Assembly: GCA_964463165.1 (NCBI GenBank)
Contig: CAYXBK010000016.1
Coordinates: 13,402 to 77,401 of the forward strand
DNA: 64,000 bases
Direction: 5' to 3'
Source of the DNA: an uncultured Chitinophagales bacterium
GTDB lineage: Bacteria > Bacteroidota > Bacteroidia > Chitinophagales > BACL12
The position numbers and the translations under genes were made by a program. Positions 7,013 through 43,097 of this stretch are shown piece by piece. Every line of letters starts with the position of its first letter. Position 1 is the first letter of the stretch. The notes under the pieces were generated by a model. It searched no databases. It saw nothing but the letters and a program-made list of their open reading frames with translations, and was not told the origin of the DNA.

Positions 7013-7078
7013 TACCTCCATCACGAATAAAACAGATTTACTATAATTCCCTTAAATTTGGGATAAACTTTTCAGCCA

Positions 7079-7315: not shown

Positions 7316-7977
7316 TGTCAAAAATCAACATTAAAAACCTTAATGGAGAGAACATTGTTGTTGGAGACAATAACACAATCAATAACAATTTCACGAGTGA
7401 TCAGGGTCTCGCCAAGGTGCTGACGAGAGATGACTATTACCAAATGATGCTTGAAATCAGAGAACTTGAACGTATCAGTGTGGGCGATTATCTTGAGGAT
7501 AAATTTGAAAAATACAGTAAAAGAAATCCAGATTTCGTTAAAATCTTGTACAAGGACATTAGTAAAGTCTTGGATGGGGTCGATCATGATGGAGATAATG
7601 ATCTTGTCATAGAAAATGGAGATTTTGTAATTGAATACGGCGATCTTAAATTATCTGGCCATCCTACGAATTTGCATTTTGCCGTAATATGGTTGAACAT
7701 CAAATTGATTGAACTTTTTGCCACAAATGGTATTCGGACTTATGATCAAAACATGGAAAATTTTGAAAATGATTTTTTGAAACATAATTACGACACTCAC
7801 GCCTATTCAAAAAAATTAAAAGCCCTAACATTTGAACTCAAAAAAGAGCGAAACTCAAAAGACAATAAAGGATGGGTTTGGAATGATTTAATTGATTACG
7901 TGGAACTCAAACCAAATATTGCAGGAATTGGCATTAACTTCAATGCAATATTGAAGAGGATATCAAATAAAAAATAG
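7315..7977 (+). CDS. Hypothetical protein
   Basis: 220-aa ORF translationally coupled to the previous ORF. Its N-terminal NIVVGDNNTINNNF echoes MIGDHNNLQSK at the end of the previous ORF. The C-terminus is amphipathic (LKPNIAGIGINFNAILKRI). Confidence 0.45.
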   Translation: MSKINIKNLNGENIVVGDNNTINNNFTSDQGLAKVLTRDDYYQMMLEIRELERISVGDYLEDKFEKYSKRNPDFVKILYKDISKVLDGVDHDGDNDLVIENGDFVIEYGDLKLSGHPTNLHFAVIWLNIKLIELFATNGIRTYDQNMENFENDFLKHNYDTHAYSKKLKALTFELKKERNSKDNKGWVWNDLIDYVELKPNIAGIGINFNAILKRISNKK

Positions 7978-8902: not shown

Positions 8903-9543
8903 CTTTCGCTGAATAATCCTTGAGGAGATTGCATTGTATTTGGATTAACACTCCCAATTAATCCTGCCGATATCAAATTGTTCCAGATAACATGAAAAAA
9001 CTCATCATCCTTTTGCAGGTCATGAAATGTGTCCAACACCATGCCCGAAATTGTCATCCTGTTACTAGGTGGTCTTAAATTCCTGCGTTCATACCATTGT
9101 GTTGGATTATTGATAAAGTCTAATATTTTAATATGCCAATCTGTGAGATTATCAAGCTGATTTAAAAATATTTGAGTTTTTGCTTTATCAGGCGCATCAC
9201 CCGTCGCAGTATTTATAATTGCGTTTTGAAAAGCTTTGATTTTTTCAGTTTCGCTTGTCTTCAACGCGTATGATGTCGCCTGAAGAATGACATCAATAAA
9301 TTGCTCATTGTCTTTTAAGGATACAATATTGAGAACTTCTTTACTCTCCAATTCTTTCAACCTAGTGGCAATATCGTTCATCCATTCGGCTCTTCTTTTT
9401 TCCAATGGAGGCGTAATGATCAGGCTGAATAATTCTGAAGCTGCTGACCCAATTACGGGGATAAACCCCAAAGCAACCTTGGCTGCCGTATGAGCAATAT
9501 CGTCCTTCCCTAGTTTATTTATGTCGTCATTCATCAAGACCAA
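8845..9543 (-). CDS. Hypothetical protein with an N-terminal hydrophobic Gly/Ala-rich segment
   Basis: 232-aa ORF. AAKVALGFIPVIGSAASELFSLIITPP is followed by a soluble helical domain. No family recognised. Confidence 0.4.
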   Translation of the reverse strand: MVLMNDDINKLGKDDIAHTAAKVALGFIPVIGSAASELFSLIITPPLEKRRAEWMNDIATRLKELESKEVLNIVSLKDNEQFIDVILQATSYALKTSETEKIKAFQNAIINTATGDAPDKAKTQIFLNQLDNLTDWHIKILDFINNPTQWYERRNLRPPSNRMTISGMVLDTFHDLQKDDEFFHVIWNNLISAGLIGSVNPNTMQSPQGLFSERCTQFGKEFLEFIKDSKIS

Positions 9544-9660: not shown

Positions 9661-9769
9661 ATATCTTTACTTTTTAGGGCTCCATAAGCAAAGTTTTTCG
9701 CTTCATTGAGGTTGAAAAGTAAAGATATTGTGATATCTTTGCTTTAATGGAAGAGAAAAGTAAAGATAA
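9661..9769. promoter_or_regulatory. Array of four 14-nt motifs in alternating orientation around the Fic start codon; operator or alternative-hairpin element
   Basis: The motifs are ATATCTTTACTTTT (9661-9674), AAAAGTAAAGATAT (9715-9728), ATATCTTTGCTTT (9733-9745) and AAAAGTAAAGATAA (9756-9769). The ATG is at 9747. Confidence 0.45.
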
Positions 9770-10931
9770 ATCCGGGCGGCTTGGGTCATATATCACAGCG
9801 AATGTGGCTGGCGAAAGCTATCAAGCGTTCTTGCCTCCACCACTGCCACCAGAGCCCCCGCTTGACCTTATACCCCTTCAAAAGCTTCTTTTAAGGGCTG
9901 GGAGGGCTGTAACACGTTTGGATACTGTATCTGAGATCATTCCCGATATTAATTTGCTGCTGTATTACTACGTCCGTAAAGAGGCTGTGCTTTCCTCGCA
10001 GATTGAAGGAACTCAATCTTCCCTCTCAGATCTATTGTTATATGAAAGCCAAGAAACACCATCGGTTCCCATTGATGATGTCATGGAAGTATCGTCATAT
10101 GTGGCCGCTCTGCAGCACGGGTTGAGCCGCATGAGGGAGGATTTTCCCTTGTCATTGCGTCTCATACGCGAAATGCATGAAATTCTATTGAGACATGGCC
10201 GGGGCAGCAACAAGCAACCGGGTGAATTCAGGCGGTCGCAAAACTGGCTTGGTGGAACTAGACCGGGAAATGCAACTTACGTTCCGCCACCACCTGAAAG
10301 GTTGATGGAGTTCCTTGACCCGTTTGAAAAATATGTGCATGAGGAAAAGCGGCTCTATTCATCCCTCATTGATGCAGGACTTATTCATGTGCAATTCGAA
10401 ACCATTCACCCCTTTCTTGACGGGAATGGTCGGATAGGACGCCTCCTCATTACGATTTATCTGATCATGATGGGTGATCTGAAACAGCCCCTTCTCTATT
10501 TAAGTCTGTTTTTTAAAAATAATCGCCAGGAATATTATAATCGTTTGAGCGCTGTGCGTCAGACAGGAGATTGGGAGGGATGGCTCGAATTTTTTTTAAC
10601 AGGCGTTGCCGAAACAGCAGATCAGGTCGTTGAAACAAGCCAGGAAATTGAACGCCTATTTACATCAGATCTGAAAAGCATTGCAACATTGAAGCGCGCA
10701 GGTATCCGCGCACGTGTCGCACATGATGCGTTACGGCACAAAGCGATTATTTCAGCTATCGATGCGGCCAAGTACATGAATTCAACGGTTCAAACTGCCC
10801 GGGCTGCTCTTATTGATTTAAAGGAGCTAGGTATTGTTAACGACATCGCGGGTAAGGGAAAAGAGAGGCTATATATTTATGCAAAACTGGTGAACATACT
10901 TGAAAAGGGCACAACCCCGATTAATTTTTAA
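9747..10931 (+). CDS. Fic family protein (AMPylase-type), class II with an N-terminal inhibitory helix
   Basis: Fic motif HPFLDGNGRIGR. An upstream SSQIEG matches the (S/T)xxxE(G/N) inhibitory motif. The C-terminal region looks winged-helix-like. Confidence 0.9.
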   Translation: MEEKSKDKSGRLGSYITANVAGESYQAFLPPPLPPEPPLDLIPLQKLLLRAGRAVTRLDTVSEIIPDINLLLYYYVRKEAVLSSQIEGTQSSLSDLLLYESQETPSVPIDDVMEVSSYVAALQHGLSRMREDFPLSLRLIREMHEILLRHGRGSNKQPGEFRRSQNWLGGTRPGNATYVPPPPERLMEFLDPFEKYVHEEKRLYSSLIDAGLIHVQFETIHPFLDGNGRIGRLLITIYLIMMGDLKQPLLYLSLFFKNNRQEYYNRLSAVRQTGDWEGWLEFFLTGVAETADQVVETSQEIERLFTSDLKSIATLKRAGIRARVAHDALRHKAIISAIDAAKYMNSTVQTARAALIDLKELGIVNDIAGKGKERLYIYAKLVNILEKGTTPINF

Positions 10932-11015: not shown

Positions 11016-12731
11016 TTGAAAAAAACAAAAAAGATTTCTCTTACTGATAAATTAGAACTTGATGGATCAATTTCAGATGCAAGGACCATCATTTTAGAAG
11101 GCATTCCGCAAGAAATACTTTTCACGAACTCACAAGAAGAGCTTTGCGCGTATATTCTCAATCAATTCGATTTTCCTGAAAAAATAAATGCAGCGGATAA
11201 TAACTCCCTCATGAAAGGTTGCAGGATCGTTCTTGACCTAATGGCGAAGAATGAAATAGGCGCAGAGGAAAATCCAAACCTGAAAACAGACCTAGATAAG
11301 TTACTCTATTATTTAATGAGTTTTGAAAGTTTGCCGGGACACCAAAAAAGAATTCTTGAAAACCAGGTTAATGATGACTTAAAAAAGGCAAACGAAATGA
11401 TTGATGGATATGAAAGATATTCTTTCATTAAAGAAACACCCAGAAATCATTTTCAGAGAACGATAAAGGATTTCTATCTGAGATGCCTTGAAGAAAAAAC
11501 TAAAATTGAATACCATCTAAAAAACGGAATAAACGAGCGAGCGATTGTGAATGCAAGCATTCATGATTTTTGGAGCATATCTGATTACATTTGGAACGGG
11601 TACAGGGATAGGCCATATAGGCTACCCTTCCCTCATTCACAGAGATATTTTGATCATTCAAGCATTGACAAAGTCCGGCATCGTATAGGGCCAATACCGT
11701 CAAGAATAGGCAAGGAACTAAGGACGCTATACAAAGAAGACAAGGAAAAATTCTATCTGGAGCTTGAAAAATATATAAAGATTGAGGATGTCCTATCCAA
11801 TTTAATAAGTCAGATTAATTTTCTTCCTTTCATATCAGATCAGCGAAAAAAAATATTTAAGGAGCTGGATGAACTATTTAAGTTAAAAAAATTCTTTGGC
11901 TTTTATGCGCTTGCATTCACACAAATCGAAGGTCTGTTTACAGACATGTGTAAGCTTTGTAAGCCTAATCGGAAAAAATTTAATCTTTCACTACCGAACA
12001 AGGTAAATTTAATTAGACCGTTTCACGATAATTCTGAATTAATTTTCGATTACTACCAATATCATCTTCCCAATTTGCGTAACTTTTTTTTGCATATTGG
12101 TGAAAACAGAAATGAAGGTATAAAGGTATTATCCAAGGATATTTTGTACGATCTGGAGGAAGTCGCTTCAGTTTTTTCAACTATGAACCTGGACGCTATA
12201 AAACTTTTGCATTTGAGCAGAAGAAGAGACGATATTGACTTTATGCATATCAATGGCATTTGTGGTTATTTTGAATTACTTGCAAGTGTAAAAGCCAAAA
12301 AACAAATTCATTATTTCGGGAATGAAATTCAAGAATTAAATAAATCATATTTACCAAGTGTAATTTTTAATGTTGTATTTGACCTGGAAGAAAAAATTAT
12401 ATCATTGTTGGATCGAATTGTTACGCCGATTGCCATGCATTCGAAAATGAATGGATTTGAAATTGATCTTAACAATACATCTGCAAAGGAAATCAATGAT
12501 CATTCAGAAGACCTTAAAATTAGCATTAGCGAGCTTATAAATTCCCAACTAAGAGCCGAAATTGAAGAGCTTCTTAATGTCGAGCAGTTTTTCATTAGTT
12601 ATAAAAAACAATTGGATATTAATTATTTGGACATTGAAACAATTAATATAATTGAAACTTTGAAAAAAAATTATTCCAGTATTTTAAAGAAAATAAAATT
12701 ATTAGCCTTTGTTACTGGATTTAAAAAATAA
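11016..12731 (+). CDS. Large hypothetical protein with a possible HEPN-like R-x4-H motif
   Basis: 571-aa ORF beginning at a TTG, so the start is uncertain. HLPNLRNFFLHIGEN fits RNxxxH. Nothing else recognised. Confidence 0.45.
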   Translation: MKKTKKISLTDKLELDGSISDARTIILEGIPQEILFTNSQEELCAYILNQFDFPEKINAADNNSLMKGCRIVLDLMAKNEIGAEENPNLKTDLDKLLYYLMSFESLPGHQKRILENQVNDDLKKANEMIDGYERYSFIKETPRNHFQRTIKDFYLRCLEEKTKIEYHLKNGINERAIVNASIHDFWSISDYIWNGYRDRPYRLPFPHSQRYFDHSSIDKVRHRIGPIPSRIGKELRTLYKEDKEKFYLELEKYIKIEDVLSNLISQINFLPFISDQRKKIFKELDELFKLKKFFGFYALAFTQIEGLFTDMCKLCKPNRKKFNLSLPNKVNLIRPFHDNSELIFDYYQYHLPNLRNFFLHIGENRNEGIKVLSKDILYDLEEVASVFSTMNLDAIKLLHLSRRRDDIDFMHINGICGYFELLASVKAKKQIHYFGNEIQELNKSYLPSVIFNVVFDLEEKIISLLDRIVTPIAMHSKMNGFEIDLNNTSAKEINDHSEDLKISISELINSQLRAEIEELLNVEQFFISYKKQLDINYLDIETINIIETLKKNYSSILKKIKLLAFVTGFKK

Positions 12732-12748
12732 TTGCCGGCTGTAAAATA

Positions 12749-12967
12749 CTATGGCTCTAGTTGCATTTTGCGCAGAATTGCCATTTGAATATTGTGCAAT
12801 GTTCCGATGATCGCAGAACAATCTTTCTGAAGCTGTTGTTTCCGAGCAAGTTTTTTAGAAACTTGATTAAATAAGGAATGCAATTCTGGTTCGCACATAT
12901 TGTCAAGTTCCGATAGTGTGAAATTCATCATAAAATTTTCCTCCGCAAATGCGCCCGTGACCATCAC
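12749..12967 (-). CDS. Small hypothetical ORF
   Basis: Only a 72-aa ORF with no motif. Confidence 0.2.
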   Translation of the reverse strand: MMVTGAFAEENFMMNFTLSELDNMCEPELHSLFNQVSKKLARKQQLQKDCSAIIGTLHNIQMAILRKMQLEP

Positions 12968-13129
12968 AGCCTTTCGGCGTCGGGAAGCATGGAAAGGAAG
13001 GCTGTGTGATAACGGACAGGCAGAGGAAAAATGAGTGACAGTAGTTCAGTCACTGAAAATACGCCTTGCTAATTGAAAAATTTTACTGAGAACAAATTAT
13101 GCATGGGTTGGACCACTGTTTTTGAAATT

Positions 13130-13315
13130 TTATTTTTTATCAATCCGACGAAACAACTTTTTGAGCTTATCTAGCACCAATGCAAAACTGGAAAAAATAG
13201 CCGCAATTCCCACTAAAATTGCTGGATCAATATCATTAATGATAGAGAGAATGATTGTTACTGCGAGCAATAAAAGCACTCCCATTAAAAGCATTAGTTT
13301 GAGAGTTTTTTTCAT
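13130..13315 (-). CDS. Small membrane protein
   Basis: 61 aa, mostly one or two hydrophobic helices (LMLLMGVLLLLAVTIILSII ... ILVGIAAIFSSFALVL). Its start overlaps the upstream stop as ATGA. Confidence 0.3.
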   Translation of the reverse strand: MKKTLKLMLLMGVLLLLAVTIILSIINDIDPAILVGIAAIFSSFALVLDKLKKLFRRIDKK

Positions 13316-13614
13316 GCTATAGCGAGCTTTAAATTAGTATCTGTACATAACGATGATTTCCCGATGGTGGCTTTTATCAAATCTCCTTGTATAGGAGCTA
13401 CATTCATAAACAAGTGTCCTTCGCAGTATACCCAATCGGTTATTTTGTATGCCAAATGGAAGTTCAGCCAGTAATCCTGGTACAAAGTAATCACCGCAAT
13501 AATCCGTATAGATTTCGCGGATATTTCCTTCAAATGTGCCGTTTGCCCGGCTTTTCGGGGTTCTGTATCTGAAGGCATCGAGTTGTAGGATGTGTGGCAG
13601 TAGGCTTCATTCAT
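13312..13614 (-). CDS. Hypothetical protein
   Basis: 100-aa ORF coupled by an ATGA overlap to the 61-aa membrane ORF. Confidence 0.3.
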   Translation of the reverse strand: MNEAYCHTSYNSMPSDTEPRKAGQTAHLKEISAKSIRIIAVITLYQDYWLNFHLAYKITDWVYCEGHLFMNVAPIQGDLIKATIGKSSLCTDTNLKLAIA

Positions 13615-13721
13615 AACAGTTCCAGCGTTTCAAGTGCTGTCTCTATTCTTAAATTACGATTTTTTTCGACGTGTTTTGGATGAATGAAGTATCAGTTTTG
13701 TCATGGGTGCCTCCTTCAGGA

Positions 13722-13901
13722 TTTGCATTTACACCCATTCGTGCATGCTTTAACCCCTGCCATTTGCGCCTGCTTACCGCATCAACAAAATAATCGGTTC
13801 CCCCTGAAGGTCTCCCCCAATTTTTTTTTTGACGCCGCATGCGCTCCCGGCTTGTCGGGGTCATCGCCCGAAAGGGTAATGCAAACAAAGGAAAACGAAC
13901 C
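13722..13901 (+). promoter_or_regulatory. Structured non-coding element, copy A (candidate RNA leader or ssDNA element)
   Basis: Alignable with copies at 21779 and 23576. It shares the helices TTTGCATT/AATGCAAA, CAACAAAATAAT/ATTTTTTTTTTG (10/12), CCCG/CGGG and CCC-GAAA-GGG. It ends at AAAGGAAAACGAACC-ATG. Confidence 0.65.
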
Positions 13902-14099
13902 ATGACAAACCAAACTGAAAAACAACACAAGAAAAAACCTGCGTTTTACATCTACACTCAAGATGCAGGAAAAAGTGAATATGCAGGTGCTGCATTTCGG
14001 CACAAGACCGGCACTGGATTTAATATCCTGATTGGCAAAGACAGTTTTGTCGCTTTTGAACCAAAAGGAAAATCCGCAACAACGGAGGAAAGCGCTTAG
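13902..14099 (+). CDS. Conserved 65-aa protein, copy A
   Basis: MTNQTEKQHKKKPAFYIYTQDAGKSEYAGAAFRHKTGTGFNILIGKDSFVAFEPKGKSATTEESA. It is 44/65 identical to copy C by hand alignment. An AGGA lies upstream of the ATG at 13902. The longer 13839 start would run into the conserved structured element. Confidence 0.65.
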   Translation: MTNQTEKQHKKKPAFYIYTQDAGKSEYAGAAFRHKTGTGFNILIGKDSFVAFEPKGKSATTEESA

Positions 14100-14130
14100 G
14101 CGCTTTCTTTCCATTATAAGGAGAATTATC

Positions 14131-14637
14131 ATGACAAGATTGTATGCACAACCTTACGATATATCTGCAAAAGGCTTTTATTTCGATTCAATCGAAGAAT
14201 ATAACCAAAAGGCATCCAAAAACTTTAATAAAATAGGCTTGCAGGTTGAGGAATACGAAATACAATTTATCTATGGAGAGAATATTGATGCAGAATTGTT
14301 TGAAGCCGCAGGTATTAATCAATCAAATATTGCTGATTTCTTTGACGCTTGCGATAATTGGAGTGATAACGAAAAATATAAAGTGATAATCGCTGTCGGC
14401 GAAGGCCATTATTCATTCGATTTTAAAATGGTTGAACCTGATGATTTTGATCTAGATATTTTTGAGATGGATACCATGCAAGAGCTTGCCGAACATTTCA
14501 CAAGTGAGGGCCTATTCGGTAATATTCCTGAATATTTGAAATACTACATAGACTATGACGCAATTGCGCTCGACCTATGTACTGATTACTTTGAAATTAC
14601 AATTGCAGGAAAACGTTTTATTTATCGTTGTTCCTAA
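14131..14637 (+). CDS. ardA: ArdA-like antirestriction protein (DNA mimic)
   Basis: 168 aa from the ATG at 14131, preceded by AAGGAG. The protein is very acidic. The C-terminal LFGNIPEYLKYYIDYDAIALDLCTDYFEITIAGKRFIY parallels the ArdA C-terminus (..VPxxLxxYIDYxAxGRDL....G.FEI). The size matches ArdA (~166 aa). Confidence 0.7.
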   Translation: MTRLYAQPYDISAKGFYFDSIEEYNQKASKNFNKIGLQVEEYEIQFIYGENIDAELFEAAGINQSNIADFFDACDNWSDNEKYKVIIAVGEGHYSFDFKMVEPDDFDLDIFEMDTMQELAEHFTSEGLFGNIPEYLKYYIDYDAIALDLCTDYFEITIAGKRFIYRCS

Positions 14638-17695: not shown

Positions 17696-17710
17696 TCCTG
17701 CGCTCGACTG

Positions 17711-17752
17711 GTATGCCCGTCAGGCTGTTTCACCTGACGGGCATACTTTTTT
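17711..17752 (+). terminator. Rho-independent terminator after ardC
   Basis: GTATGCCCGTCAGG / CCTGACGGGCATAC 14-bp stem followed by TTTTTT. Confidence 0.8.
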
Positions 17753-18177
17753 GTTAATTGGTACCATTAATGGTGATATTTTGAATTTTTTGTCACCATT
17801 TATAGGATATTTTCATATTAAATTTGGTCGTGTAATGGATTCAGCATAGCCTTGCGATATCACAGCGTAGAAATGTATATTCATTATGTAGAAATCAGGG
17901 TAAAAAAGCCCCGACTTAATAATTAAAATTTTTGTTAAAGTTCGCATAGCTTGGAATTTATGAAAAACTTTTTATCTTCGGTACGCCATTGGATGATACT
18001 TGGCCTAAACAACAAAATTTGGGCCATGTCTAAGTCTAAATATCAATACGTTGAACCCAATTATGCCCCAATGAAACGCGTTCCAACCGGTTATCAATCT
18101 GTTAACCAGATTAGTTTTTTATGCCATTTGAGCAACAATTTAAACTATTATTCGGTTTACCTATTAATATAAACGTC

Positions 18178-18765
18178 ATGATTAGTCAAAACCTTAATAC
18201 CATTCCCGAAGTCGATAGCGACTATAAAGAGTACATTCAATCACTTGCTGAAGGTAAAAAAGAGCCATTCCTAAATAGTGGCCCTGCTCATGCTTCTTAT
18301 GTATTTGCAACTTTATTTTCTAAGGCTCAAAATAATGGTATTATCAAAATTTACAATGGTGGTTTTAGAGGGGAAGTATCGAATGATGATTATTATCAAG
18401 AACAACTTTTCGATTTTTTATCGCGAGGTGGTACTTTGCAAATTTTATGCACTCAACCTTTAAGCAAGAATACTAATTTGTTTGAAGGGTTAAGATTTTA
18501 TGCTTTTCTTAATCCCAAATCTGTTGTTATTAAACAAACCGTTAAAAAAGTACTTGACCCGGTAACAAAAAAAGAAGCTCACTTTATGGTAGCTGATGAT
18601 TTAATGTATAGAATAGAAGAAGATATTATAAATTATACCGCTATATGTAGCTTTAATGATCCTGAAACAAGTATGTCAATATCTAATCTTTTCGATGTCA
18701 TTTTTAAATCCGAGGAAGCAACTCTTGTAGATATGGCTTTACCGAAAAAATTAGAAAAAGTTTAA
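18178..18765 (+). CDS. Hypothetical protein, possibly a degenerate PLD/HKD-like fold
   Basis: The ORF track gives 18121-18765; the ATG at 18178 (MISQNLN) is the more likely start. AHFMVADD ... CSFND faintly resembles an HKD motif lacking the Lys. Confidence 0.4.
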   Translation: MISQNLNTIPEVDSDYKEYIQSLAEGKKEPFLNSGPAHASYVFATLFSKAQNNGIIKIYNGGFRGEVSNDDYYQEQLFDFLSRGGTLQILCTQPLSKNTNLFEGLRFYAFLNPKSVVIKQTVKKVLDPVTKKEAHFMVADDLMYRIEEDIINYTAICSFNDPETSMSISNLFDVIFKSEEATLVDMALPKKLEKV

Positions 18766-18815
18766 TATACGTCTGCCCGAATTATACCATTACCCTTTTT
18801 TTTTAAACCTGACCC

Positions 18816-19886
18816 TTGCACGACTTTACCCATTTTGCTCATCTGATTGAGTTTATCGCCGCATTAAACGGCGCATATATTCTTTCAACAGAATTTGCCA
18901 AAAAAGTTAAAAAATTAACAAATTACGCCGGGTCTAAAGTAATTACAGAGCATAAATTAGTTAATATAAAATGGAAATCAGCACGAGGATTAATGTTTAA
19001 ATTGATTAATGGTGCGACAGAAGATTTGACTAAATTGTGTGAAGAATTTAATGATACTTGCAAGCAAATTAAATTAAGAATAGAGAGCGTTAGAAAAGAA
19101 TATATTGAAAATTCAACGAATTTTGAAGAATTGACCAATTTTAATATCTTTTGCTTTTTTGGCGCTTTTTATTCCGTAATTGTTTTAATCTTGATTGGTG
19201 CTGAATATAAATTTGACCAGGATTTTACTAGAGACTATTTCTTTTTATTTAATATTATAAGTTTTATAATAATTATCATTTTTAAATTTCGAGGATTTAA
19301 AGAGAAATATATTCATGTCCTTTGGCTGATAATTCCTCCGGCATTAATAACTGGTGTTCTAATGCTGTTCAATGTTTGGGAAAAAATTGGAATTTGCAAT
19401 ACAAACTGGTTGTATGTTGGCAACTGCATACTCGCATTAATCATTCCCACATGGCATTTTTTATTTTATATAATTAAATCCAAAAAAAGAATTGAAAAAA
19501 TAGATAACGATTTCCTCTTGGAAGTTCAAAATTGTAGCAGTCAATGCGATACATTTACAATAGCATTGAACAAAGCTCTGAAAGGAGAAAAGACTAAAGG
19601 TCAATCTCCCACTGATCTTGAAGAAAAAAGTGTTCCACTCATTGTCGTTGGTCGAATTTTATACATTGCCGCATCTGAAGAACAATGGAAAGTTTATTGG
19701 GAAAATGAAACACTTGGCACCTATTTTTCTACGAAGATTGATGCAATTAAATACTCAAGAGAAGAGGTTAGTAAACTTCAAGAAGGAAGTGTACTGCAAA
19801 TCAGAATAAATAATTCAGATGGGACTTTTGCGGTCGAATGGACCTACGGCATAGATGACTTTCCACCACTTATTGCAGAACAATAG
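18816..19886 (+). CDS. Multi-pass membrane protein with a soluble C-terminal domain
   Basis: 356-aa ORF with a TTG start, so the start is uncertain. The central ~110 aa hold 4-5 hydrophobic helices. The C-terminal KVYWENETLGTYFSTKIDAIKYSREEV...DGTFAVEW resembles a DUF2188-like module. Confidence 0.45.
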   Translation: MHDFTHFAHLIEFIAALNGAYILSTEFAKKVKKLTNYAGSKVITEHKLVNIKWKSARGLMFKLINGATEDLTKLCEEFNDTCKQIKLRIESVRKEYIENSTNFEELTNFNIFCFFGAFYSVIVLILIGAEYKFDQDFTRDYFFLFNIISFIIIIIFKFRGFKEKYIHVLWLIIPPALITGVLMLFNVWEKIGICNTNWLYVGNCILALIIPTWHFLFYIIKSKKRIEKIDNDFLLEVQNCSSQCDTFTIALNKALKGEKTKGQSPTDLEEKSVPLIVVGRILYIAASEEQWKVYWENETLGTYFSTKIDAIKYSREEVSKLQEGSVLQIRINNSDGTFAVEWTYGIDDFPPLIAEQ

Positions 19887-20114
19887 TGTTCTGAAGTAAG
19901 ATTAAAAGGTATCCGAATTAGTAATTCTTCATACAATCTTGCTGCTAGTTATAAATTAATAAACAACTTCTCAGTCAATTCTGTTTCTATTTATTTATTC
20001 GCCTATCTCAATAGTTATTTCTAACCGATTTATTCACAAATAGCGTTTGTAAGATTACTTTTAAAAGAGTAACTTTATTTGGAATATTTATTTAAAATAT
20101 TTAAATCATGAATT

Positions 20115-21719
20115 ATGAAGCAAATTCTACTCTCCTGCATTATTTGTATGATTGTTTTTTCGTATGAAGCTTTACCACAAGCACCCCCAATCAGATGGGG
20201 AAATGCTATTGGAGGTACCAACTTGGAAAGTTGTGGAAGCATGATTATTACTGCTGATAATCGTTTTATTTTAGTTGGTTCCTCACATTCACAAAATGGA
20301 GAATTATCCGGTGTTACGAGTTATGGGCAGGATGATGTTATCCTTGTCAAAATAAAAAATAATGGAGCACTTCAATGGATAAAAAAATTTGGCGGTAAAA
20401 AAATTGATACTGGTCAAGATATTGTTCAGACTTCCGATGGAAATTTTGTTTTTGTGGGCATCACTTACTCCAATAATTTCGATGTTTCCGGCCTTCACGG
20501 TTTAAATGATGCCTGGCTTGTAAAAGTAAATTCCGCTACCCAAAATATTATGTGGCAAAAGTGCATTGGGGGCAGTGGAGCTGATCAGGGATTATCTCTC
20601 GCATTGACGCCTGACAACGGATTTTTAATTGGCGGATTATCTCTGTCAACCGATGGTGATTTATCTAGTGCAGGCAACCATGGTCAGTCAGATTATTGGG
20701 TCATAAAAACAGATAGTTCAGGAAATATTCAATGGTCTAAATGCTATGGTGGCAGCGAACAGGAAACCTGCAAAAGCGTTTATATTACATCTGATGGTGG
20801 ATATTTGATTTTTGGAGATACACATTCTGCGGATGGTGATGTTATTGGTAAAATTGGCGGCATTGATAACGATGATTTGTTTCTTTTAAAGCTTAATTCA
20901 ATTGGCGATATAGAATGGAGCCGGTGTATCGGTGGAAGTGACAATGATTTTGCAGGTGGCATCATGCAGGATTTAAATGATAATATCCTTTTAACATCCT
21001 ATTCAAGTTCTACCGACAATGAATTTGTTGGCAACCTCGGAGGTGCAACAGGATACGATGCATTTGTAATAAAATTAGATCCAGATGGAAATACAATTTG
21101 GTCGAAACCTTTGGGTGGATATGAAGATGAAATTTGTTTTTCTGAAGCAATTCAAAATTCGGATTCAACTTATATTATTCCTTGTCAATCTGGCTCAAAT
21201 GATGAATTCGTTTCAGGTGCTCATTATGGATGGGATTTCTGGATTGTTGAATTGAGTTTAGATGGCGATATTAATTGGCAATATTGTTATGGAGGTTCTT
21301 TTCAAGAGGGACCTCAAACATGCGCCATGGATTTTGATGGACGCCCAACATTTGCAGGTTATACCCGTTCCTCTGATGGGGATGTCACAGGCTACAAAGG
21401 TAACAATGCATACAATGATATTTGGACGATTCAATTAGATCTAATATCATTAAAAGAAAATGCAAATATTCAACTTAACACCATTACTCCGACAATCTTT
21501 CCAAATCCATTCAATGATCAATTAAAAATTAACTATTACAGTGAAAGTGAAACTCCTGCGAAACTATTTATTTATGATCTCTTTGGAAAATTACTTTACG
21601 CTTCAGAATTGTTAAAAGGTAATTCAAGTATTGATGTTTCTATGTTGTCAAAAGGAATTTATCAGGTAAAAATTTTCGATGATAACAAACAATATATTTT
21701 CAAGATTATTAAATCATGA
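20115..21719 (+). CDS. Secreted beta-propeller-repeat protein with a T9SS C-terminal sorting domain
   Basis: A signal peptide is followed by ~8 repeats of the (W.K.(Y/I)GG...D.G..+..T.DGG+++.G.S.S.DGD) type. The C-terminal ~80 aa (FPNPFNDQLKINY ... GIYQVKIFDDNKQYIFKIIK) are typical of Por/T9SS CTDs. Confidence 0.8.
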   Translation: MKQILLSCIICMIVFSYEALPQAPPIRWGNAIGGTNLESCGSMIITADNRFILVGSSHSQNGELSGVTSYGQDDVILVKIKNNGALQWIKKFGGKKIDTGQDIVQTSDGNFVFVGITYSNNFDVSGLHGLNDAWLVKVNSATQNIMWQKCIGGSGADQGLSLALTPDNGFLIGGLSLSTDGDLSSAGNHGQSDYWVIKTDSSGNIQWSKCYGGSEQETCKSVYITSDGGYLIFGDTHSADGDVIGKIGGIDNDDLFLLKLNSIGDIEWSRCIGGSDNDFAGGIMQDLNDNILLTSYSSSTDNEFVGNLGGATGYDAFVIKLDPDGNTIWSKPLGGYEDEICFSEAIQNSDSTYIIPCQSGSNDEFVSGAHYGWDFWIVELSLDGDINWQYCYGGSFQEGPQTCAMDFDGRPTFAGYTRSSDGDVTGYKGNNAYNDIWTIQLDLISLKENANIQLNTITPTIFPNPFNDQLKINYYSESETPAKLFIYDLFGKLLYASELLKGNSSIDVSMLSKGIYQVKIFDDNKQYIFKIIKS

Positions 21720-21778
21720 TGAACAAAGTAGAGCCCATTATGCTTATCGATTGAAAGTATATCATTGCAACTTCTACA

Positions 21779-21957
21779 TTTGCATTTAAACCCATTCGTG
21801 CAGCCTTTTCTCCCTGCCATCCGTGGATGCTTCCAGCTTCAACAAGAAAATCGGTTCCCCCTGAAGGTTTCCCCCAATTTTCTTGTTGACGCCGCATCCA
21901 CTCCTGGCCGGTCTGGGCATAGCCCGAACGGGTAATGCAAACAAAGGAGAATGAACC
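21779..21957 (+). promoter_or_regulatory. Structured non-coding element, copy B
   Basis: Same architecture as copy A. The 12-bp helix CAACAAGAAAAT (21840-21851) / ATTTTCTTGTTG (21877-21888) is perfect. A CCTGG/CTGGG hairpin is present. The element ends AAAGGAGAATGAACC-ATG. Confidence 0.65.
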
Positions 21958-22155
21958 ATGCTAAACAAAACCGAAAACAACGACAAAGTGGAATTGATGT
22001 ATATTCTTTTCAAATACGAAAAAGGTGTAAAAACATATGCTGGTGCTGTTTTACGCCAAAATATTGGTTCCGGCGTAAGCGTCGTAGTTGGCGATCAGGC
22101 TTATCTGGCTTTCGTGCCTGGCTCTGACATACTTGCTGAATTTGAGCGGGCTTAA
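21958..22155 (+). CDS. Conserved 65-aa protein, copy B (divergent)
   Basis: MLNKTENNDKVELMYILFKYEKGVKTYAGAVLRQNIGSGVSVVVGDQAYLAFVPGSDILAEFERA. It has the same length and keeps the YAGA, R...G.G, G-D and AF.P positions. Confidence 0.6.
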   Translation: MLNKTENNDKVELMYILFKYEKGVKTYAGAVLRQNIGSGVSVVVGDQAYLAFVPGSDILAEFERA

Positions 22156-22202
22156 TAATAAATCGCTAAATTCAACATATAGTGGATAAGTGCGAATACC
22201 CT

Positions 22203-22234
22203 CGCCTCATGAAATTCGATAATTTCATGAGGCG
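22203..22234 (+). terminator. Perfect 14-bp hairpin between small ORF B and its cargo gene (terminator or attenuator candidate)
   Basis: CGCCTCATGAAATT-cgat-AATTTCATGAGGCG followed by AAATTTTG. The U-tract is weak. Confidence 0.4.
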
Positions 22235-22250
22235 AAATTTTGTACTCAAT

Positions 22251-23513
22251 ATGATTAAGGTTGAAACAAATATTAAAAAGAATTTACTCGATGCCTGGAA
22301 AAAGGAATGTTTTTACTTGTCGTCTGAATTTTCGCTGCATAAACAATTTGAGAGGTCTGTTGTCGATTCAGTTTATAAAACTTTTTCAGATTATTTTGGG
22401 ATAAATTATTTTAATATTGAAGGTGGTGAACAAAATATTTCAGCAAAAGAAAATTGGATATTCTATTTGCTTGCTAGTTCAAATCGCCGCGCTTGCATGG
22501 CGGCATTATTTGAAATTACAAACACGCTTCTATACTTACAAACATTGTCCAGATCAATACAGAAGAAATTCAAATCCGTTTTTAATGATCCTCAACAGTT
22601 CAGGGATTTATTTTTTGAATTATATATTTTCCGATTGATGGAATTCAACAAAATATCTCATTTAAAAAAGCCCAAAGAAAATGGACAGGAACTGGATGTC
22701 GTTTGTACAATTAATAATCAGGATTATTTGGGTGAATGTCTGAAAGTCTATGCACCTAATTTGGTTTTGCTGCATAATGAGAAATATTTCATGACATTGC
22801 TCACCTTGAAACTGTCAAGCTTAAGTAAAGGTTTTGGCATGATCGGAATGGTTAAATTCAGCAATCCGAATTCCGAGAATGTTAAAAAAGTTTTTACGTC
22901 CAAACTGGAGAAATTCGTGAAAGGATTTAATGCTCAAAAATTTATCAATATAGGTTATTACGATAAGGATGATGACGGCGAGTTTTCTGTCATAGACTAT
23001 TCGGTGGCAAACAATCTTGAAGCTGAAATGGATTTTTCAAATTACCATGTCATGTTTAAATACATCCCGCCTTTTAGTGTGACCCAAGGTATTTTCAATC
23101 ATTATCGGATTGAACTAAAAGGCGGGCTTGTTATCCCCCAATATAAAATCATCCAGAAATTATTTAGCACTTTAAAAGTAAAAAGCGAACAGCACAAAAA
23201 TTCAGCCCATGCAAACAAAATTTATTTTATCGATAGTGAAGCTATTCCAGATTTTAATCCCGCCATTTTTATGGATGGGTCAGTGTTCCCTGAAGAAGAA
23301 ATTCAGGACTTCATAAATGAGTTTTCTGATAAAGAGATCTTCTGTTTCATTTTGCGGAATTATACTTCACATATCCCTAAAGTTACCATTAAAGTTTTAG
23401 GTAAAAATATTGATGATAAAATCAAACATAGACTGGAAAATTTGAAAACCAATTTTGATTTCACGATTATCAAACCACGCATGAAAAGTAATTTTTTAAT
23501 CCTCCCGAATTAA
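22251..23513 (+). CDS. Hypothetical protein, cargo of module B
   Basis: The ORF track gives 22182-23513 with a GTG start that would run through the hairpin. The ATG at 22251 (MIKVETN) lies just after the hairpin. This gives 420 aa with no confident motif. Confidence 0.5.
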   Translation: MIKVETNIKKNLLDAWKKECFYLSSEFSLHKQFERSVVDSVYKTFSDYFGINYFNIEGGEQNISAKENWIFYLLASSNRRACMAALFEITNTLLYLQTLSRSIQKKFKSVFNDPQQFRDLFFELYIFRLMEFNKISHLKKPKENGQELDVVCTINNQDYLGECLKVYAPNLVLLHNEKYFMTLLTLKLSSLSKGFGMIGMVKFSNPNSENVKKVFTSKLEKFVKGFNAQKFINIGYYDKDDDGEFSVIDYSVANNLEAEMDFSNYHVMFKYIPPFSVTQGIFNHYRIELKGGLVIPQYKIIQKLFSTLKVKSEQHKNSAHANKIYFIDSEAIPDFNPAIFMDGSVFPEEEIQDFINEFSDKEIFCFILRNYTSHIPKVTIKVLGKNIDDKIKHRLENLKTNFDFTIIKPRMKSNFLILPN

Positions 23514-23575
23514 TTGCATGGTATTTATTTGCTCTGATTTTTTCAAACAGTTTGTACGCTTCACCTCCTTTCCCG

Positions 23576-23754
23576 TTTGCATTTGAACCCATTCGTGCAG
23601 CCTTTTACGCCTGCCATCCGCGGCTGCTTCTCGCATCAACAAGAAAATCGGCTCCCCCTTAAGGTTCCCCCCAATTTTCTTGTTGACGCTGCATCCGCTC
23701 CTAGCGGGCTAGGGCATCCCCCGAAAGGGTAATGCAAACAAAGGAGAACAAACC
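23576..23754 (+). promoter_or_regulatory. Structured non-coding element, copy C
   Basis: Same architecture as copies A and B: a perfect 12-bp helix, a CCTAG/CTAGG hairpin and CCC-GAAA-GGG. It ends AAAGGAGAACAAACC-ATG. Confidence 0.65.
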
Positions 23755-23952
23755 ATGACAAACCAAACCGAAAAACATCCTAAACATAAACCTGCGTATC
23801 ACATCTTCATTCAAGAGGCAGGCAAGAGCAAATATGCAGGTGTTGTTTTCCGTCATAAAACCGGCAAAGGGTTTAATATTTTGATCGGTGATAAATGCTA
23901 TTCCGCATTCGAAGCGAAAACCAAATCCGAAACACCGGAGGAGAGTGCTTAG
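23755..23952 (+). CDS. Conserved 65-aa protein, copy C
   Basis: MTNQTEKHPKHKPAYHIFIQEAGKSKYAGVVFRHKTGKGFNILIGDKCYSAFEAKTKSETPEESA. The stop TAG sits in the loop of a hairpin (23941-23960), as in copy A. Confidence 0.65.
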   Translation: MTNQTEKHPKHKPAYHIFIQEAGKSKYAGVVFRHKTGKGFNILIGDKCYSAFEAKTKSETPEESA

Positions 23953-24080
23953 GCGCCCTCTTTCATCTTAACACACAGTTGATAATTTTTGCACAAATGA
24001 TGCAGCGAGCCTCATAAGTTTGTAAATTATATGGTGCGATTACTGAAAAAAAGAAAAATAACACGAACCATGTATAATCT

Positions 24081-24653
24081 ATGTCTGATTTATTAAAAAA
24101 AGACAAGGAGTTTAAAGAAGCGATAGGGGCATTTATTATCGCGTTTTCCGAACTTGAATTCGGGCTGATGTTTCTATGTTCGATGACAGAATTCGACTTC
24201 AGGAAAAAAGATGATTATATAATTAAATATATGACCTTCTCATTTGAGCAAAAAGTAAAGCATCTCACAACATTTATAGATGAACACCTTCATGAACTCA
24301 AACTCATTTGGGATAAACTTAAAAATGAAATGGGAACACTTAATCGTGAACGAAGATTTTTGGCTCATGGCTTTATGCAATATTCTCTCCCAAGAGAAAG
24401 TATTACAACACACATACGAGAAAATGGAAAAGTGACGACAAAAAAACACTCTGTTGAAGAAATCGAAGATTTAACTGACCGCCTGCATCATTTAAATACC
24501 GGTGAACATGGTATCAATGGTGAATTCAACACCCTATTTACAAAGACACGGATTGATAAATGGAATAATCTTGTGAACGACGAAAATAAAATCATTTACA
24601 GGGTTAATAGTAAAATAATATCAAAATGGAAAGGCAAAAACAAGAATGACTAA
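24081..24653 (+). CDS. Hypothetical protein with a possible HEPN-like R-x4-H motif, cargo of module C
   Basis: 190-aa ORF predicted to be helical. LNRERRFLAHGF contains R-x4-H. The N-terminal AFSELEFGL helix is typical of small HEPN-like proteins. Weak inference. Confidence 0.45.
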   Translation: MSDLLKKDKEFKEAIGAFIIAFSELEFGLMFLCSMTEFDFRKKDDYIIKYMTFSFEQKVKHLTTFIDEHLHELKLIWDKLKNEMGTLNRERRFLAHGFMQYSLPRESITTHIRENGKVTTKKHSVEEIEDLTDRLHHLNTGEHGINGEFNTLFTKTRIDKWNNLVNDENKIIYRVNSKIISKWKGKNKND

Positions 24654-29282: not shown

Positions 29283-29659
29283 ATTTCCAGATTATAGCAT
29301 AGTTTTGAAAAATCGACTTCGTATTTGTGTTTAACGGATTGCGTATTTGTTTTTAATTCTTCCATTGCATGCATTCATCATCTGAATTTTTTTGCTTTTT
29401 GTTGACGAAAAAATTCACACGTACACGGCGGGCGATACGGTGGTCCATCCCACCGGATCGCTGCAGCCTTTTGGCCGCCGCAACGATCAAATTTTTGCAC
29501 CGCTAAAATTTGATCGTGCTAGCCCTGCGAGACGTCGGTCGTACCCCGACGGATCGCTGAAGCGCAGGGCGCCGTTTTTCCAAAAAGCACTGATAGCAAC
29601 ACGTATATCACCGTTAAACATCAACCCATCAGACATCTTCCCTATGCACAGCATAGGAG
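29283..29659. other. Candidate oriT / regulatory region upstream of the relaxase gene
   Basis: A GC-rich core (29420-29580) sits in an AT-rich context. Direct repeats CGTATTTGTGTTT (29320-29332) and GCGTATTTGTTTTT (29341-29354). A 13-bp inverted repeat ACGATCAAATTTT/AAAATTTGATCGT (29483-29517). Direct repeats C(C/G)ACGGATCGCTG near 29450 and 29548. Small hairpins CGTCGG/CCGACG and CTATGC/GCATAG. Confidence 0.35.
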
Positions 29660-30439: not shown

Positions 30440-31930
30440 TTAAGGAATGAATTTTTGATCGAAACGTGTTTTCAGGTAGTTATTGGTTAATGATGTTTCG
30501 CCCTGAAAATGAACATAAGCTTCAACTTTAAAATCGTTTAATCCGCCGCCGGTTTTCAGTTGGGAAAATTCTTCAGGATGAACCTCTTTATCCGGCTTTA
30601 ATGACTTTGATTTTGAGGATGAAAATTGACCGGCAACTGTTGTTGAACTTCCAATGTCAAGCCGGAAATCATCCCCAATTAATTCAGAAGCATAATTGTT
30701 TGTTTCAAGATCGGCATTGGCGTGAAATATCTTTGTCGCCAGGGTGCCGAGAAAACTTTTCACATGATGATCGCCTTTCCTCCCGCCCATATTGGCGTAA
30801 TAGTTCGGTAGGTTCTGGGTGATATAAACCGTCGCCAAACGGCTGCCGCGAGCTGTTGCCTGATATTCGGCATCGTGCTCATGCAGGAAATGCTGGGCTT
30901 CATCCGCCCACAAAAAGATAGGTTTTGTACCGGGTTCAATTTTTCGTTTTTCCATCGCCCGTTGCCAGATGTATTTAAACATGATCTGGCTATCACGGCC
31001 GATTTTATGATGGAGTTTTATTGGCAAATTGATCAGGATGATTTTACCATTCAGGCATTTTTCCGGTGAAAATGTTGATGTCCGGCTGCAGAATAAATCG
31101 TATACAGGATTGCGCAGCAAGCGGAATAAAAAACCGGAAAATGAAAATTCAATAATTGATCTTGTTCTTTCGGCAAGGTTTTGAAAATTGCCATTAAAAA
31201 ATTCATCCACAAACTTGAATATACGCCCGTCATGAACCTCTTTTAAAAATGCCTGCTCGTGGAGTCCGTCTTCCTTTAATTTTTCTAAATACTCGGGTTT
31301 TTGTTTAAATGACCATTCATCAAACTGCTGATTGACATTTTTCGCGGCAAGTTCAAAGGCTTCCCGAAACGCGGTTTTCTTTTGTTCATTATCTTGAACC
31401 ACCCCTGCCTTCGGCAGGGTCTGCACGATATCGTACATCTGCTGCACAGAGATTTTCTGATAGGCGAGCCTGCATAGATCAATCACGTTAAATATGAGCA
31501 TATCGAGCGCCTTTTCCCAAAAGGGATCATCGCCATGGCCGCCTTCTTTTGCTTCACTGGCATTCAGAACGGTTTTTAAAACTTCAACAATGTTTTCAGT
31601 AATAGCTTGTTTGTCTGGGCTTTTTTTGATCTCGTAGTCGAAGAAATTAAAGCAACGTTTTTTACCTGGCTCCACGATAATTAAATCTTTTCTGCGTGAG
31701 GTAATATCGCAGTATTTAATCCAGGTGTCTTTTTCGTCGGGTTTTACTGTCAGGACGAGGCCGCCGAAGCCTGCCTTTAGGTATTTCAAGGCGAGCATAC
31801 GCCCTGAACCTGTTGTTTTACCGGAGCCGATACCGCCGAAGATTTGAACACCTTCCACGGCATTGCGGACTGTCCAATTCATTTTACCAAATTGGATTAG
31901 CGGGGTATCGAGGTAATCGGGATCTGCCAT
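30440..31930 (-). CDS. Type IV coupling protein-like ATPase (TraG/TraD/VirD4 family, FtsK-HerA superfamily)
   Basis: Walker A GGIGSGKTTGSG, Walker B IFLWADEAQHF, and RGSRLATVYITQNL (T4CP-like arginine/Q motif). The ORF track starts at a GTG at 31960; the ATG at 31930 (MADPDYL) is preferred. No N-terminal TM helices. Confidence 0.7.
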   Translation of the reverse strand: MADPDYLDTPLIQFGKMNWTVRNAVEGVQIFGGIGSGKTTGSGRMLALKYLKAGFGGLVLTVKPDEKDTWIKYCDITSRRKDLIIVEPGKKRCFNFFDYEIKKSPDKQAITENIVEVLKTVLNASEAKEGGHGDDPFWEKALDMLIFNVIDLCRLAYQKISVQQMYDIVQTLPKAGVVQDNEQKKTAFREAFELAAKNVNQQFDEWSFKQKPEYLEKLKEDGLHEQAFLKEVHDGRIFKFVDEFFNGNFQNLAERTRSIIEFSFSGFLFRLLRNPVYDLFCSRTSTFSPEKCLNGKIILINLPIKLHHKIGRDSQIMFKYIWQRAMEKRKIEPGTKPIFLWADEAQHFLHEHDAEYQATARGSRLATVYITQNLPNYYANMGGRKGDHHVKSFLGTLATKIFHANADLETNNYASELIGDDFRLDIGSSTTVAGQFSSSKSKSLKPDKEVHPEEFSQLKTGGGLNDFKVEAYVHFQGETSLTNNYLKTRFDQKFIP

Positions 31931-31956
31931 GAAAAAGAAAAGATATTTTACCGTTT

Positions 31957-32763
31957 TCACTCAATCCCTAACTGAGCAAAAGCCAGGTCTTCAGCACTTT
32001 CTTCTGTCTTGATCGCTGATGAATTCTCCATCATTGTTCGTGCAGAGGTTGGAAAACGCAAAGTTTTAGGCTCAAAATCACCTGTGCCCCACCAGATGAA
32101 TCGGTTTTTAATTTTACAAAGCCCCATCATAATATATAATCCCTCTTTTCCCTCCACTTTGTAACCAATACTACTTTCCCTATGAAGATTTACTTTTATG
32201 CTCGCATCCGCAAGATTTATTTTTTCGATTTGTGGACTATCCGTTTCGAAAGAAATTTCCGAATTATTGCTTTTTGAAATTGCTAAAATGGTCAGGCCAC
32301 TTTGTACCAAATCTGTAACAACACAATATTCCTTTTTCCACTTACCATTTTTCAATAATGTTTTTAATATCTCTCCGATTTTTGCCTTGTTACTTATTCG
32401 GGTTGTAGTGCAATCTGCGGCATTGAAGAAAATTGAATCCTTGTTTGCAAATTTTACTTCTAAGGTAGCCTTAGCCACCGGAATGCCTCTTGCATTCAAG
32501 CTTCCCTTACTCAATAAATTAACTTCAACACCGCTTTCAGATTGAAATTCCTTGTGATCCTTCCATTGATCGGCTGTGATTTTAATAACATCGCCAGAAA
32601 ATTCAGGAAAATCGTCTTTTAACTTCCCTATATGGAGAAAAATGTTTCCATCCAGCAGTCCGTAGTCTCCTAATTCCACAGCGGCACCTGGCTCCCAATT
32701 GGCATAAAAAACCTCAAATTGTTTTTTGATTTCATCAGTGTAAAGATTGGCAAGATTGCTCAT
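31957..32763 (-). CDS. Hypothetical beta-rich protein
   Basis: 268-aa ORF immediately upstream of the T4CP-like gene. No motif recognised. Confidence 0.45.
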   Translation of the reverse strand: MSNLANLYTDEIKKQFEVFYANWEPGAAVELGDYGLLDGNIFLHIGKLKDDFPEFSGDVIKITADQWKDHKEFQSESGVEVNLLSKGSLNARGIPVAKATLEVKFANKDSIFFNAADCTTTRISNKAKIGEILKTLLKNGKWKKEYCVVTDLVQSGLTILAISKSNNSEISFETDSPQIEKINLADASIKVNLHRESSIGYKVEGKEGLYIMMGLCKIKNRFIWWGTGDFEPKTLRFPTSARTMMENSSAIKTEESAEDLAFAQLGIE

Positions 32764-32826
32764 ACAGTTAATTTTAATTTTGCCTACTCTTAGTCGGATT
32801 TTCGGCTTATCTCCGTTTAATATTTT

Positions 32827-43089: not shown

Positions 43090-43097
43090 TTGTTTCG

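Follow-up and report, generated by a model that had tools for sequence, protein, structure and literature searches.

The window, as the whole 64-kb stretch of DNA that was analysed is called here, carries three modules (A, B and C) that share one layout, and the gene for the 420-aa protein P0001 is the cargo of module B. The features at and around this gene are listed below.

21779–21957, plus strand: copy B of a hairpin element of about 180 nt, upstream of the module, recognised by repeat comparison and folding
21958–22155, plus strand: 65-aa ORF of module B, with some 40% identity to the ORFs of modules A and C; it belongs to the repeated unit, not to the cargo
22202–22235, plus strand: hairpin resembling a terminator (15 bp, short T run), past the 65-aa ORF and ahead of the P0001 gene
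22251–23513, plus strand: gene for P0001, supported by ORF translation, by its relatives and by purifying selection against the copy in the related element L014
23576–23754, plus strand: copy C of the hairpin element, 62 nt past the P0001 stop codon; the gene and this downstream element are syntenic with L014
26538–29282, minus strand: TrwC relaxase gene
30440–31960, minus strand: coupling protein gene
42942–43170: two tRNA genes, beyond which the genes are housekeeping genes

Translation of 22251–23513 on the plus strand gave 420 residues and a stop codon, as the earlier note on this DNA had stated. The reading frame is open back to a GTG at 22182 and contains two further in-frame ATG codons, at 22209 (434 aa) and 22227, and the public database cluster P0002 is the 434-aa form starting at 22209. 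In the alignment, the relatives of P0001 start 2–13 residues ahead of a conserved NLLxxWKxEC block, which makes 22251 the likeliest start. A word-indexed search returned 22 full-length relatives with 40–68% identity (E≤1e-76), and comparison with P0003, the 68%-identical copy of L014, gave a pN of 0.19 and a pS of 0.79, with synonymous sites saturated. The gene is thus more than a chance ORF and, judged by its sequence against the L014 copy, is under purifying selection. The G+C content of the gene was 0.34, lower than the 0.45–0.50 of the relaxase region. The two sequencing runs that contain most of the DNA of the window were activated-sludge metagenomes.

The modules and the surrounding island

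The three element copies in the window lie at 13720–13900, 21779–21957 and 23576–23754, with a mean column identity of 91%, and each is directly followed by a 65-aa ORF (13903–14100, 21958–22155 and 23755–23952). The layout of element, 65-aa ORF and cargo described earlier agrees with these coordinates, as does the hairpin of module B, which ends 15 nt short of the P0001 ATG. The element folds as an imperfect hairpin of about 165 nt. With DNA parameters, the strand complementary to the genes was more stable by 5–13 kcal/mol in all seven copies compared and contained more G-T pairs; this is as would be expected if the template strand carried a single-strand promoter or initiation signal. Rfam had no family for it. 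The cargo of module A (14131–14637), previously called ArdA-like, encodes an acidic protein of 168 aa (pI 4.1) that scored 21.4 bits against Pfam ArdA, below the cut-off of 27, and its counterparts in L014 and L026 scored 27.1 and 30.9 bits. The genes behind the seven element copies encode an ArdA-like protein in three cases, P0001 in one, a secreted protein with a T9SS tail in one and unknowns in two. Because the cargo varies in this way, the slot alone does not predict function.

The P0001 gene is located directly behind an element copy and on the same strand as the genes for the ArdA-like protein, RadC and ArdC. Other genes on the island encode an HTH protein, a primase, and TIR-TPR, DUF4209, Fic and AbiEii/AbiEi proteins. 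No type IV secretion genes were identified within the 64 kb, so the island may be conjugative or only mobilisable. The oriT and the nick polarity were not located: a MOBF nic-like motif matched at chance level (15 matches against 14.2 expected), and there was only a 16-nt inverted repeat at 29483–29517. Because of this, and because the modules converge on the relaxase operon, the term "leading region" is presumptive for this part of the island. Samuel et al. 2024 reportedly define a leading-region anti-defence gene as one of the ORFs that come first after oriT and whose template is the T-strand.

Of the 15 records that contain a homologue, L014 alone is a transfer-related element akin to the one in the window. 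Its gene order is element, small ORF, ArdA, HTH, primase, RadC, ArdC and then P0003, with another element copy, a 61-aa ORF and the T9SS-tail protein located 3' of P0003. The backbone proteins of the two elements share 76–97% identity, the nuclease and the T9SS-tail protein only 68%, and these two have changed order. P0003 follows the ArdC terminator, not an element, and the 65-aa ORF, which in the window precedes the ArdA-like gene and a 190-aa cargo as well, is missing before it. The earlier note had read the slot that ArdA occupies in module A as a sign of a comparable establishment or anti-defence function for P0001. The positional part of this reading stands: the gene shares its strand with the ArdA-like, RadC and ArdC genes, and the L014 copy likewise sits beside ArdC. 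The step from slot to function is not supported, since the cargo behind the seven copies is mixed and the L014 homologue lies behind no element.

A rare family with a probable PD-(D/E)xK core

The P0001 gene can be divided into three parts.

22251–22589, plus strand: N-terminal all-helical region, residues 1–113, with near-invariant L13, W16, F54 and L74
22590–22865, plus strand: PD-(D/E)xK nuclease core, residues 114–205, assigned from the AF2 model, conservation, the profile match to 1y88 and the list of fold matches
22866–23510, plus strand: C-terminal alpha/beta half, residues 206–420, assigned from conservation and a separate model

An exhaustive profile search found that the family comprises 164 clusters at 50% identity, 134 of them at E≤1e-10. 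Among the 150 best-scoring family proteins listed, none was longer than 472 residues; longer fused forms were not found, which is weak evidence. Searches of P0001 against Pfam, NCBIfam, PHROGs and PADLOC returned sub-threshold noise only, and 72 family members gave single weak or sub-threshold matches only against PADLOC and Pfam. This agrees with the earlier note, which recognised no family: none of the named families in these four collections covers the protein, and the nearest clusters in the ESM Atlas were unnamed hypothetical proteins. Homologues were found neither in plasmid and phage collections (tblastn) nor in IMG/VR (scan). The family is sporadic: in a sample of 400 further genomes of the phylum, none had a match (E≤1e-10), the genome of the window contains a single copy, a metagenome scan recovered only three loci, and a scan for loci with family sub-alignment A7 recovered none. 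P0001 is a member of a rare, unnamed family of proteins of about 400 residues.

The AlphaFold (AF2) model of P0001 had a pLDDT of 80.6 and a pTM of 0.81. In the core, a helix with E123 is followed by a strand, a strand from D149, a strand with E162-C163-L164-K165, a helix and a last strand (H114–132, E136–139, E150–154, E157–166, H171–189 and E197–203 in the model). This is the alpha-beta-beta-beta-alpha-beta fold of the PD-(D/E)xK superfamily, with fold-search Z scores that reach only the noise ceiling. Across 72 diverse members, E123 was conserved in 71 and D/E149, E162 and C163 in all 72; W16 was also among the most strongly conserved residues. The family consensus at the last motif is E-C-K-K. 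Positions 164–165 read K-K, R-K, K-N, K-Q and others, with lysine at 164 in 41 of the 72 members, at 165 in 54, and at one or the other in 66 of the 72 patterns, mostly at one or both. When residue 165 is not lysine, residue 164 almost always is, and the converse is mostly true as well. P0001 has E-C-L-K (within E-D-E-C-L-K): the canonical ExK position, 164, is leucine and the second lysine is kept, which makes it an ExxK variant.

The segment quoted in the earlier note, ELDVVCTINNQDYLGECLKVY, corresponds to residues 147–167. It had been said to resemble a nuclease core loosely, and the conserved motifs and the match to 1y88 now place the putative PD-(D/E)xK active site in exactly this segment. 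The nuclease call had been withheld on account of the ExxK spacing; this spacing is explained by a family consensus with lysine at either of two adjacent positions, and the family profile matches a solved nuclease-like protein. The profile of the 72 members matched PDB 1y88 (1y88_A, AF1548), a PD-(D/E)xK member of solved structure, at E=3e-5 over profile positions 118–179. In the alignment, 'qeleGv...ECKk' stands opposite 'QEIDVV...ECKF', and the D and E-C-K motifs line up. It was the sole solved protein matched by the profile, and in an independent exhaustive VIA-align fold search it appeared at rank 7 with Z 6.7.

The top VIA-align match was the nuclease domain of the toxin CdiA-CT (Z 8.1, with an rmsd of 3.3 over 123 aligned residues), followed further down by HamA (Z 7.5), McrC (6.8), Card1/Can2/Cdn1, NucC and many type II restriction endonucleases; Hjc and an XisH-like protein were also in the best 50 rows. 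About 35 of the best 50 chains are, judged by their titles, nucleases of the restriction-endonuclease fold, and six rows were central domains of acetyl-CoA carboxylase. All Z scores were 8.1 or less, at or below the level given for models without a true match, so the fold evidence carries weight only in combination with the motif and the profile match. Foldseek with the full model gave no match in PDB or BFVD at E≤0.001. The N-terminal helical region was scarcely covered by the fold-search matches. The C-terminal half contains conserved residues of its own (K311, Q314-H315, R/K323, D328, E330 and R/K369) and reached a pLDDT of 91 when modelled alone; it had no Foldseek match, and its best VIA-align Z was 5.3, with no coherent family. 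Membership in Pfam Mrr_cat (PF04471) was considered and rejected, since P0001 did not match and only one of the 72 members did, at E=0.048.

Taken on sequence and model, P0001 is very probably a PD-(D/E)xK nuclease, which would be catalytically active. Of the 109 columns conserved in 20 other close relatives, 17 were changed in either of the element-borne copies and five in both, and no catalytic residue was changed in P0001 or P0003. The copies on the two transfer-related elements look functional by this comparison.

Relatives and the link to type IIG enzymes

Genomic contexts were compared for 15 records that contain a homologue; the whole family comprises 164 clusters. Four further records (L006–L009) were dropped as probably spurious and are not counted in the 15; their matches had 27–30% identity over 93 residues inside BatD-like proteins. 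In five of the 15 records (L001, L015, L004, L005 and L016), the homologue was translationally coupled to a complete restriction-modification (R-M) enzyme of the Eco57I/MmeI type (type IIG), with the start codon 4–11 nt inside, or 14 nt past, the end of the enzyme gene. The enzyme of L016 is split, and the homologue follows the TaqI_C part. L001 and L015 had the same layout. A PD...EAK nuclease motif of their own is retained at the N-terminus of the partner enzymes. In an alignment of five enzymes, four (L001, L004, L016 and L019) were 74–84% identical to that of L001 in the N-terminal region, and that of L005 had only 21% identity there. In L019, a homologue of a distant clade is located 2.8 kb from the same enzyme family, with a HEPN gene between them.

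The other contexts were mixed. The L003 homologue lies among IrrE-like, multiubiquitin/ThiF and AAA_21/RloB genes, and the neighbours in L017, L020 and L022 are of mobile or defence type. Housekeeping genes flank the homologues of L002, L018, L021 and L023. In L022 and L023, only ORFs of 127 and 185 aa lie beneath the match with an ATG-only ORF finder, and these two copies may be broken. The check proposed in the earlier note, whether homologues sit in leading or anti-defence regions, speaks against its reading: 14 of the 15 records, all except L014, lie outside the establishment regions of conjugative elements and five of them are operon partners of type IIG enzymes.

An enzyme of the partner type was found in 29 of 401 genomes of the phylum (E≤1e-50), and nine of these reached at least 60% identity. 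Compared with the 0 of 400 for the nuclease family, this indicates that the nuclease is an optional add-on and not an obligatory subunit of the type IIG enzyme. With the L001 enzyme as query, no partner-type enzyme was found in the genome of the window, and ORFs of the Eco57I family are present on two of its other contigs. A restriction subunit of a local R-M system was rejected as an identity for P0001, since no methyltransferase lies beside it and its neighbours are the 65-aa ORF and the element copies. Among the 12 of 82 matching papers listed, we saw no report of an accessory nuclease of type IIG enzymes, which does not prove that there is none. Given the repeated operon link, the family is probably tied in function to restriction-type defence, with some room for doubt.

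Possible roles and comparison with known systems

The reading that we favour, tentatively, is that P0001 is defence or competition cargo that would cut foreign DNA. The protein would be a stand-alone DNA endonuclease with a helical N-terminus, a PD-(D/E)xK core of the Mrr/AF1548-like kind and a conserved alpha/beta C-terminal half. Elsewhere, its family would serve as an optional add-on of restriction-type immunity, often co-translated with an Eco57I/MmeI-like type IIG enzyme; the copy in the window would be an orphan, kept under purifying selection within the ArdA/RadC/ArdC region. Its targets may be DNA foreign to both the element and its host, for example that of phages or rival mobile elements. 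In this way, P0001 may be a restriction-associated endonuclease that acts alone, with its gene placed as cargo in an establishment region, rather than an inhibitor of host defences. As the family rides behind R-M genes elsewhere, a defence-type nuclease is the likelier cargo than an ArdA-style inhibitor. Against the cargo reading, an orphan nuclease without a methyltransferase needs other means of sparing its host, and none was identified; the leucine of P0001 at the canonical lysine position, 164, counts against it as well. The position of the gene, on the same strand, behind an element and beside the ArdA-like and ArdC genes, is at least as compatible with a role in establishment or anti-defence as with cargo.

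This position also underlies the foremost alternative, which we consider unlikely: that the element captured the add-on protein that accompanies type IIG enzymes, to be expressed early in the recipient against the defences there. Such a protein could bind or mis-regulate a resident type IIG enzyme, or poison an R-M-linked abortive back-up that is otherwise triggered by ArdA-type inhibitors. The gene does lie on the ArdA/RadC/ArdC strand behind a hairpin element, and the better folding of the template strand in seven of seven copies is as for a single-strand promoter. One study reports that Frpo-type single-strand promoters drive anti-defence genes, which are enriched in leading regions (PMC11541004). 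The terminator-like hairpin, however, stands between the element and the P0001 gene in the window, the L014 gene follows a terminator instead of an element, and the transfer polarity (oriT and T-strand) was not established. The tight coupling to one R-M enzyme family suggests that the two proteins are partners, physically or in function, of which a solo copy could make use, and by the L001 query the host lacks the partner enzyme. Back-up effectors linked to R-M systems and set off by ArdA or Ocr are known, namely PrrC, Ronin and EcoR22I, as described in a preprint (bioRxiv 10.1101/2023.04.06.535777). Capture is opposed by the retention of all catalytic residues with no decoy-like degeneration, by the location of 14 of the 15 related records away from the establishment regions of conjugative elements, and by the absence of homologues from the plasmid, phage and IMG/VR collections. 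A fully specified form of this idea is more doubtful still: a captured type IIG partner, expressed from a single-strand-promoter module near ArdA and ArdC, would act in counter-defence either as a decoy that disables the type IIG enzymes of the recipient or as a dominant-negative form that blocks an ArdA-triggered, R-M-linked suicide response.

Similarly improbable is a toxin or abortive effector that stabilises the element, a latent nuclease that a partner or regulation would restrain and that would kill cells that lose the element or become infected. The CdiA-CT toxin nuclease domain as top fold match (Z 8.1, at the noise ceiling), the abortive-system effector nucleases Card1, Can2, NucC and HamA in the same list and the AbiEii/AbiEi pair on the island are consistent with it, and toxin-antitoxin genes are frequent in leading regions according to the same study (PMC11541004). 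A conserved antitoxin-like partner was, however, lacking, as the 65-aa ORF precedes other cargo too and is missing before the L014 copy, and solitary copies lie beside housekeeping genes in L002, L018 and L021. It is very unlikely that P0001 processes the DNA of the element itself, for example as a structure-specific nuclease whose substrates are the hairpin elements or intermediates of transfer or integration: the PD-(D/E)xK fold does include resolvases and excision factors (Hjc and the XisH-like protein are in the fold list), and two elements share the synteny of the P0001 gene with the element copy that follows it, but most loci of relatives are without the element (by BLAST over L001–L016, it was only in L014 and in L013, which is the DNA of the window itself), five relatives are R-M operon partners, and L025 and L026 have the hairpin element without a P0001-type gene.

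An unannotated gene, whose family is missing from Pfam, NCBIfam, PHROGs and PADLOC, gains a testable identity, and the family combines a clear nuclease active site with a specific and repeated operon link to one type IIG enzyme family. Should this link prove functional, restriction-type immunity would gain a two-gene variant, and the orphan copies would be either defence cargo among establishment genes or a defence component captured for counter-defence. If the capture were true, the R-M-linked members would make up an undescribed immune system of a type IIG enzyme plus a back-up nuclease. The heterogeneous cargo is also a caution that function should not be read from the slot behind a repeated promoter-like element.

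The closest known protein is AF1548 (1y88) of Archaeoglobus fulgidus, which is Mrr-type and restriction-endonuclease-like and shares the D and E-C-K motifs over about 65 aligned residues. AF1548 has 199 residues, whereas P0001 adds a helical N-terminus of about 110 residues and a C-terminal half of about 215 residues without a fold match. HamA of Hachiman and Card1/Can2 are also PD-(D/E)xK defence effectors, with Z 7.5 (8zue), 5.9 (8vxy), 5.7 (6wxw) and 5.6 (7bdv), all within the noise range, and over residues 118–163 P0001 weakly matched the nuclease portion of a CARF-PDDEXK model of PADLOC (E=0.0039). Unlike these effectors, P0001 has no HamB helicase neighbour and no CARF domain. An assignment to Hachiman HamA was rejected, since a neighbouring helicase gene and a HamA (DUF1837) match in PADLOC or Pfam are both lacking and the similarity is one of fold only.

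The R-M-linked back-up effectors, namely PrrC with EcoprrI, RonA in Ronin, and EcoR22I, likewise place a second effector gene at an R-M locus. In the preprint, these are an anticodon nuclease, a 61-aa membrane protein and the R-M enzyme itself, respectively, with type I/III systems (bioRxiv 10.1101/2023.04.06.535777). The P0001 family differs from what is described there in being a PD-(D/E)xK protein found with type IIG enzymes, and we regard the analogy as a possible lead only.

ArdA, as the cargo of module A, shares with P0001 the strand and the layout of element, small ORF and cargo. An ArdA-type DNA mimic was rejected as an identity for P0001, which had no ArdA match and is basic (pI 8.63) at 420 aa. 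ArdA-like proteins are small, acidic DNA mimics, and the neighbouring one has 168 aa and a pI of 4.1, whereas P0001 has 420 aa, a pI of 8.6 and a predicted nuclease active site.

Folding of the hairpin element

The hairpin element, a repeat of about 180 nt, was compared in seven copies from the window and from three related elements: L014, which carries its own copy of the nuclease, and L025 and L026, which lack it.

Copies of the hairpin element
Window: 13720-13900; 21779-21957; 23576-23754
L014: 345-516; 5759-5930
L025: 2853-3024
L026: 2850-3024

Of the two strands, the one complementary to the genes that follow was predicted to fold more stably in all seven copies, by 5-13 kcal/mol with DNA parameters, and this strand also contained more G-T pairs in 7/7. 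Both properties point to a structure formed on the template DNA strand and not in the mRNA.

Cargo behind the hairpin element

Cargo order was compared between window 17696-24653 and L014 4315-8158. The backbone genes of the two elements were 76-97% identical, and the common cargo consisted of the nuclease and a T9SS-tail protein, each about 68% identical. The same cargo genes occurred in a changed order relative to the hairpin element copies, which suggests that cassettes have been shuffled between these copies.

In L026, the copy was followed by one 209-aa ORF (2904-3533) whose C-terminal portion matched ArdA; this ORF looks like a fusion of the small ORF and ArdA. An integrase was encoded upstream of it, and a 423-aa protein that matched DUF7828 weakly was encoded 3' of it.

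Relaxase region and island of the window

The gap of 377 nt that precedes the relaxase gene contained a 16-nt inverted repeat (29483-29517; 94% complementary, 3-nt loop), a candidate for the oriT hairpin. A DUF805b RNA match (32781-32816, minus strand) of 36.3 bits, just over the Rfam gathering score of 35.6, fell in the gap preceding the coupling-protein/relaxase operon. The island also carried the genes listed below, and the two tRNA genes probably mark its right end.

777-2297: TIR-TPR protein
3868-5730: DUF4209/DUF7380 protein
9747-10931: Fic protein
41012-42677: AbiEii/AbiEi pair, adjoining the tRNA genes
42942-43170: two tRNA genes

Neighbors of the nuclease homologues

Four partial tblastn matches (L006-L009) in Planctomycetales and Omnitrophota were regarded as probably spurious. 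They covered nuclease residues 29-121 at 27-30% identity and fell within the C-terminal portion of BatD-like proteins.

The homologue at locus L003 was flanked by an IrrE-like peptidase, a multiubiquitin and ThiF/DUF6791 pair, and an AAA_21 and RloB pair (5812-7474, 8589-9425 and 12086-14085); these surroundings are a dense defence island.

Four other homologue loci encoded type IIG enzymes of one family.

L001: 7156-10002
L004: 114-2861
L016: 3042-5998, split into 740-aa and 239-aa ORFs
L019: 129-3134

This family, present in 29 of the 401 genomes sampled from the phylum, was well conserved (N-termini 74-84% identical) and combined an HSDR_N-like PD..EAK nuclease, an Eco57I methylase and TaqI_C.
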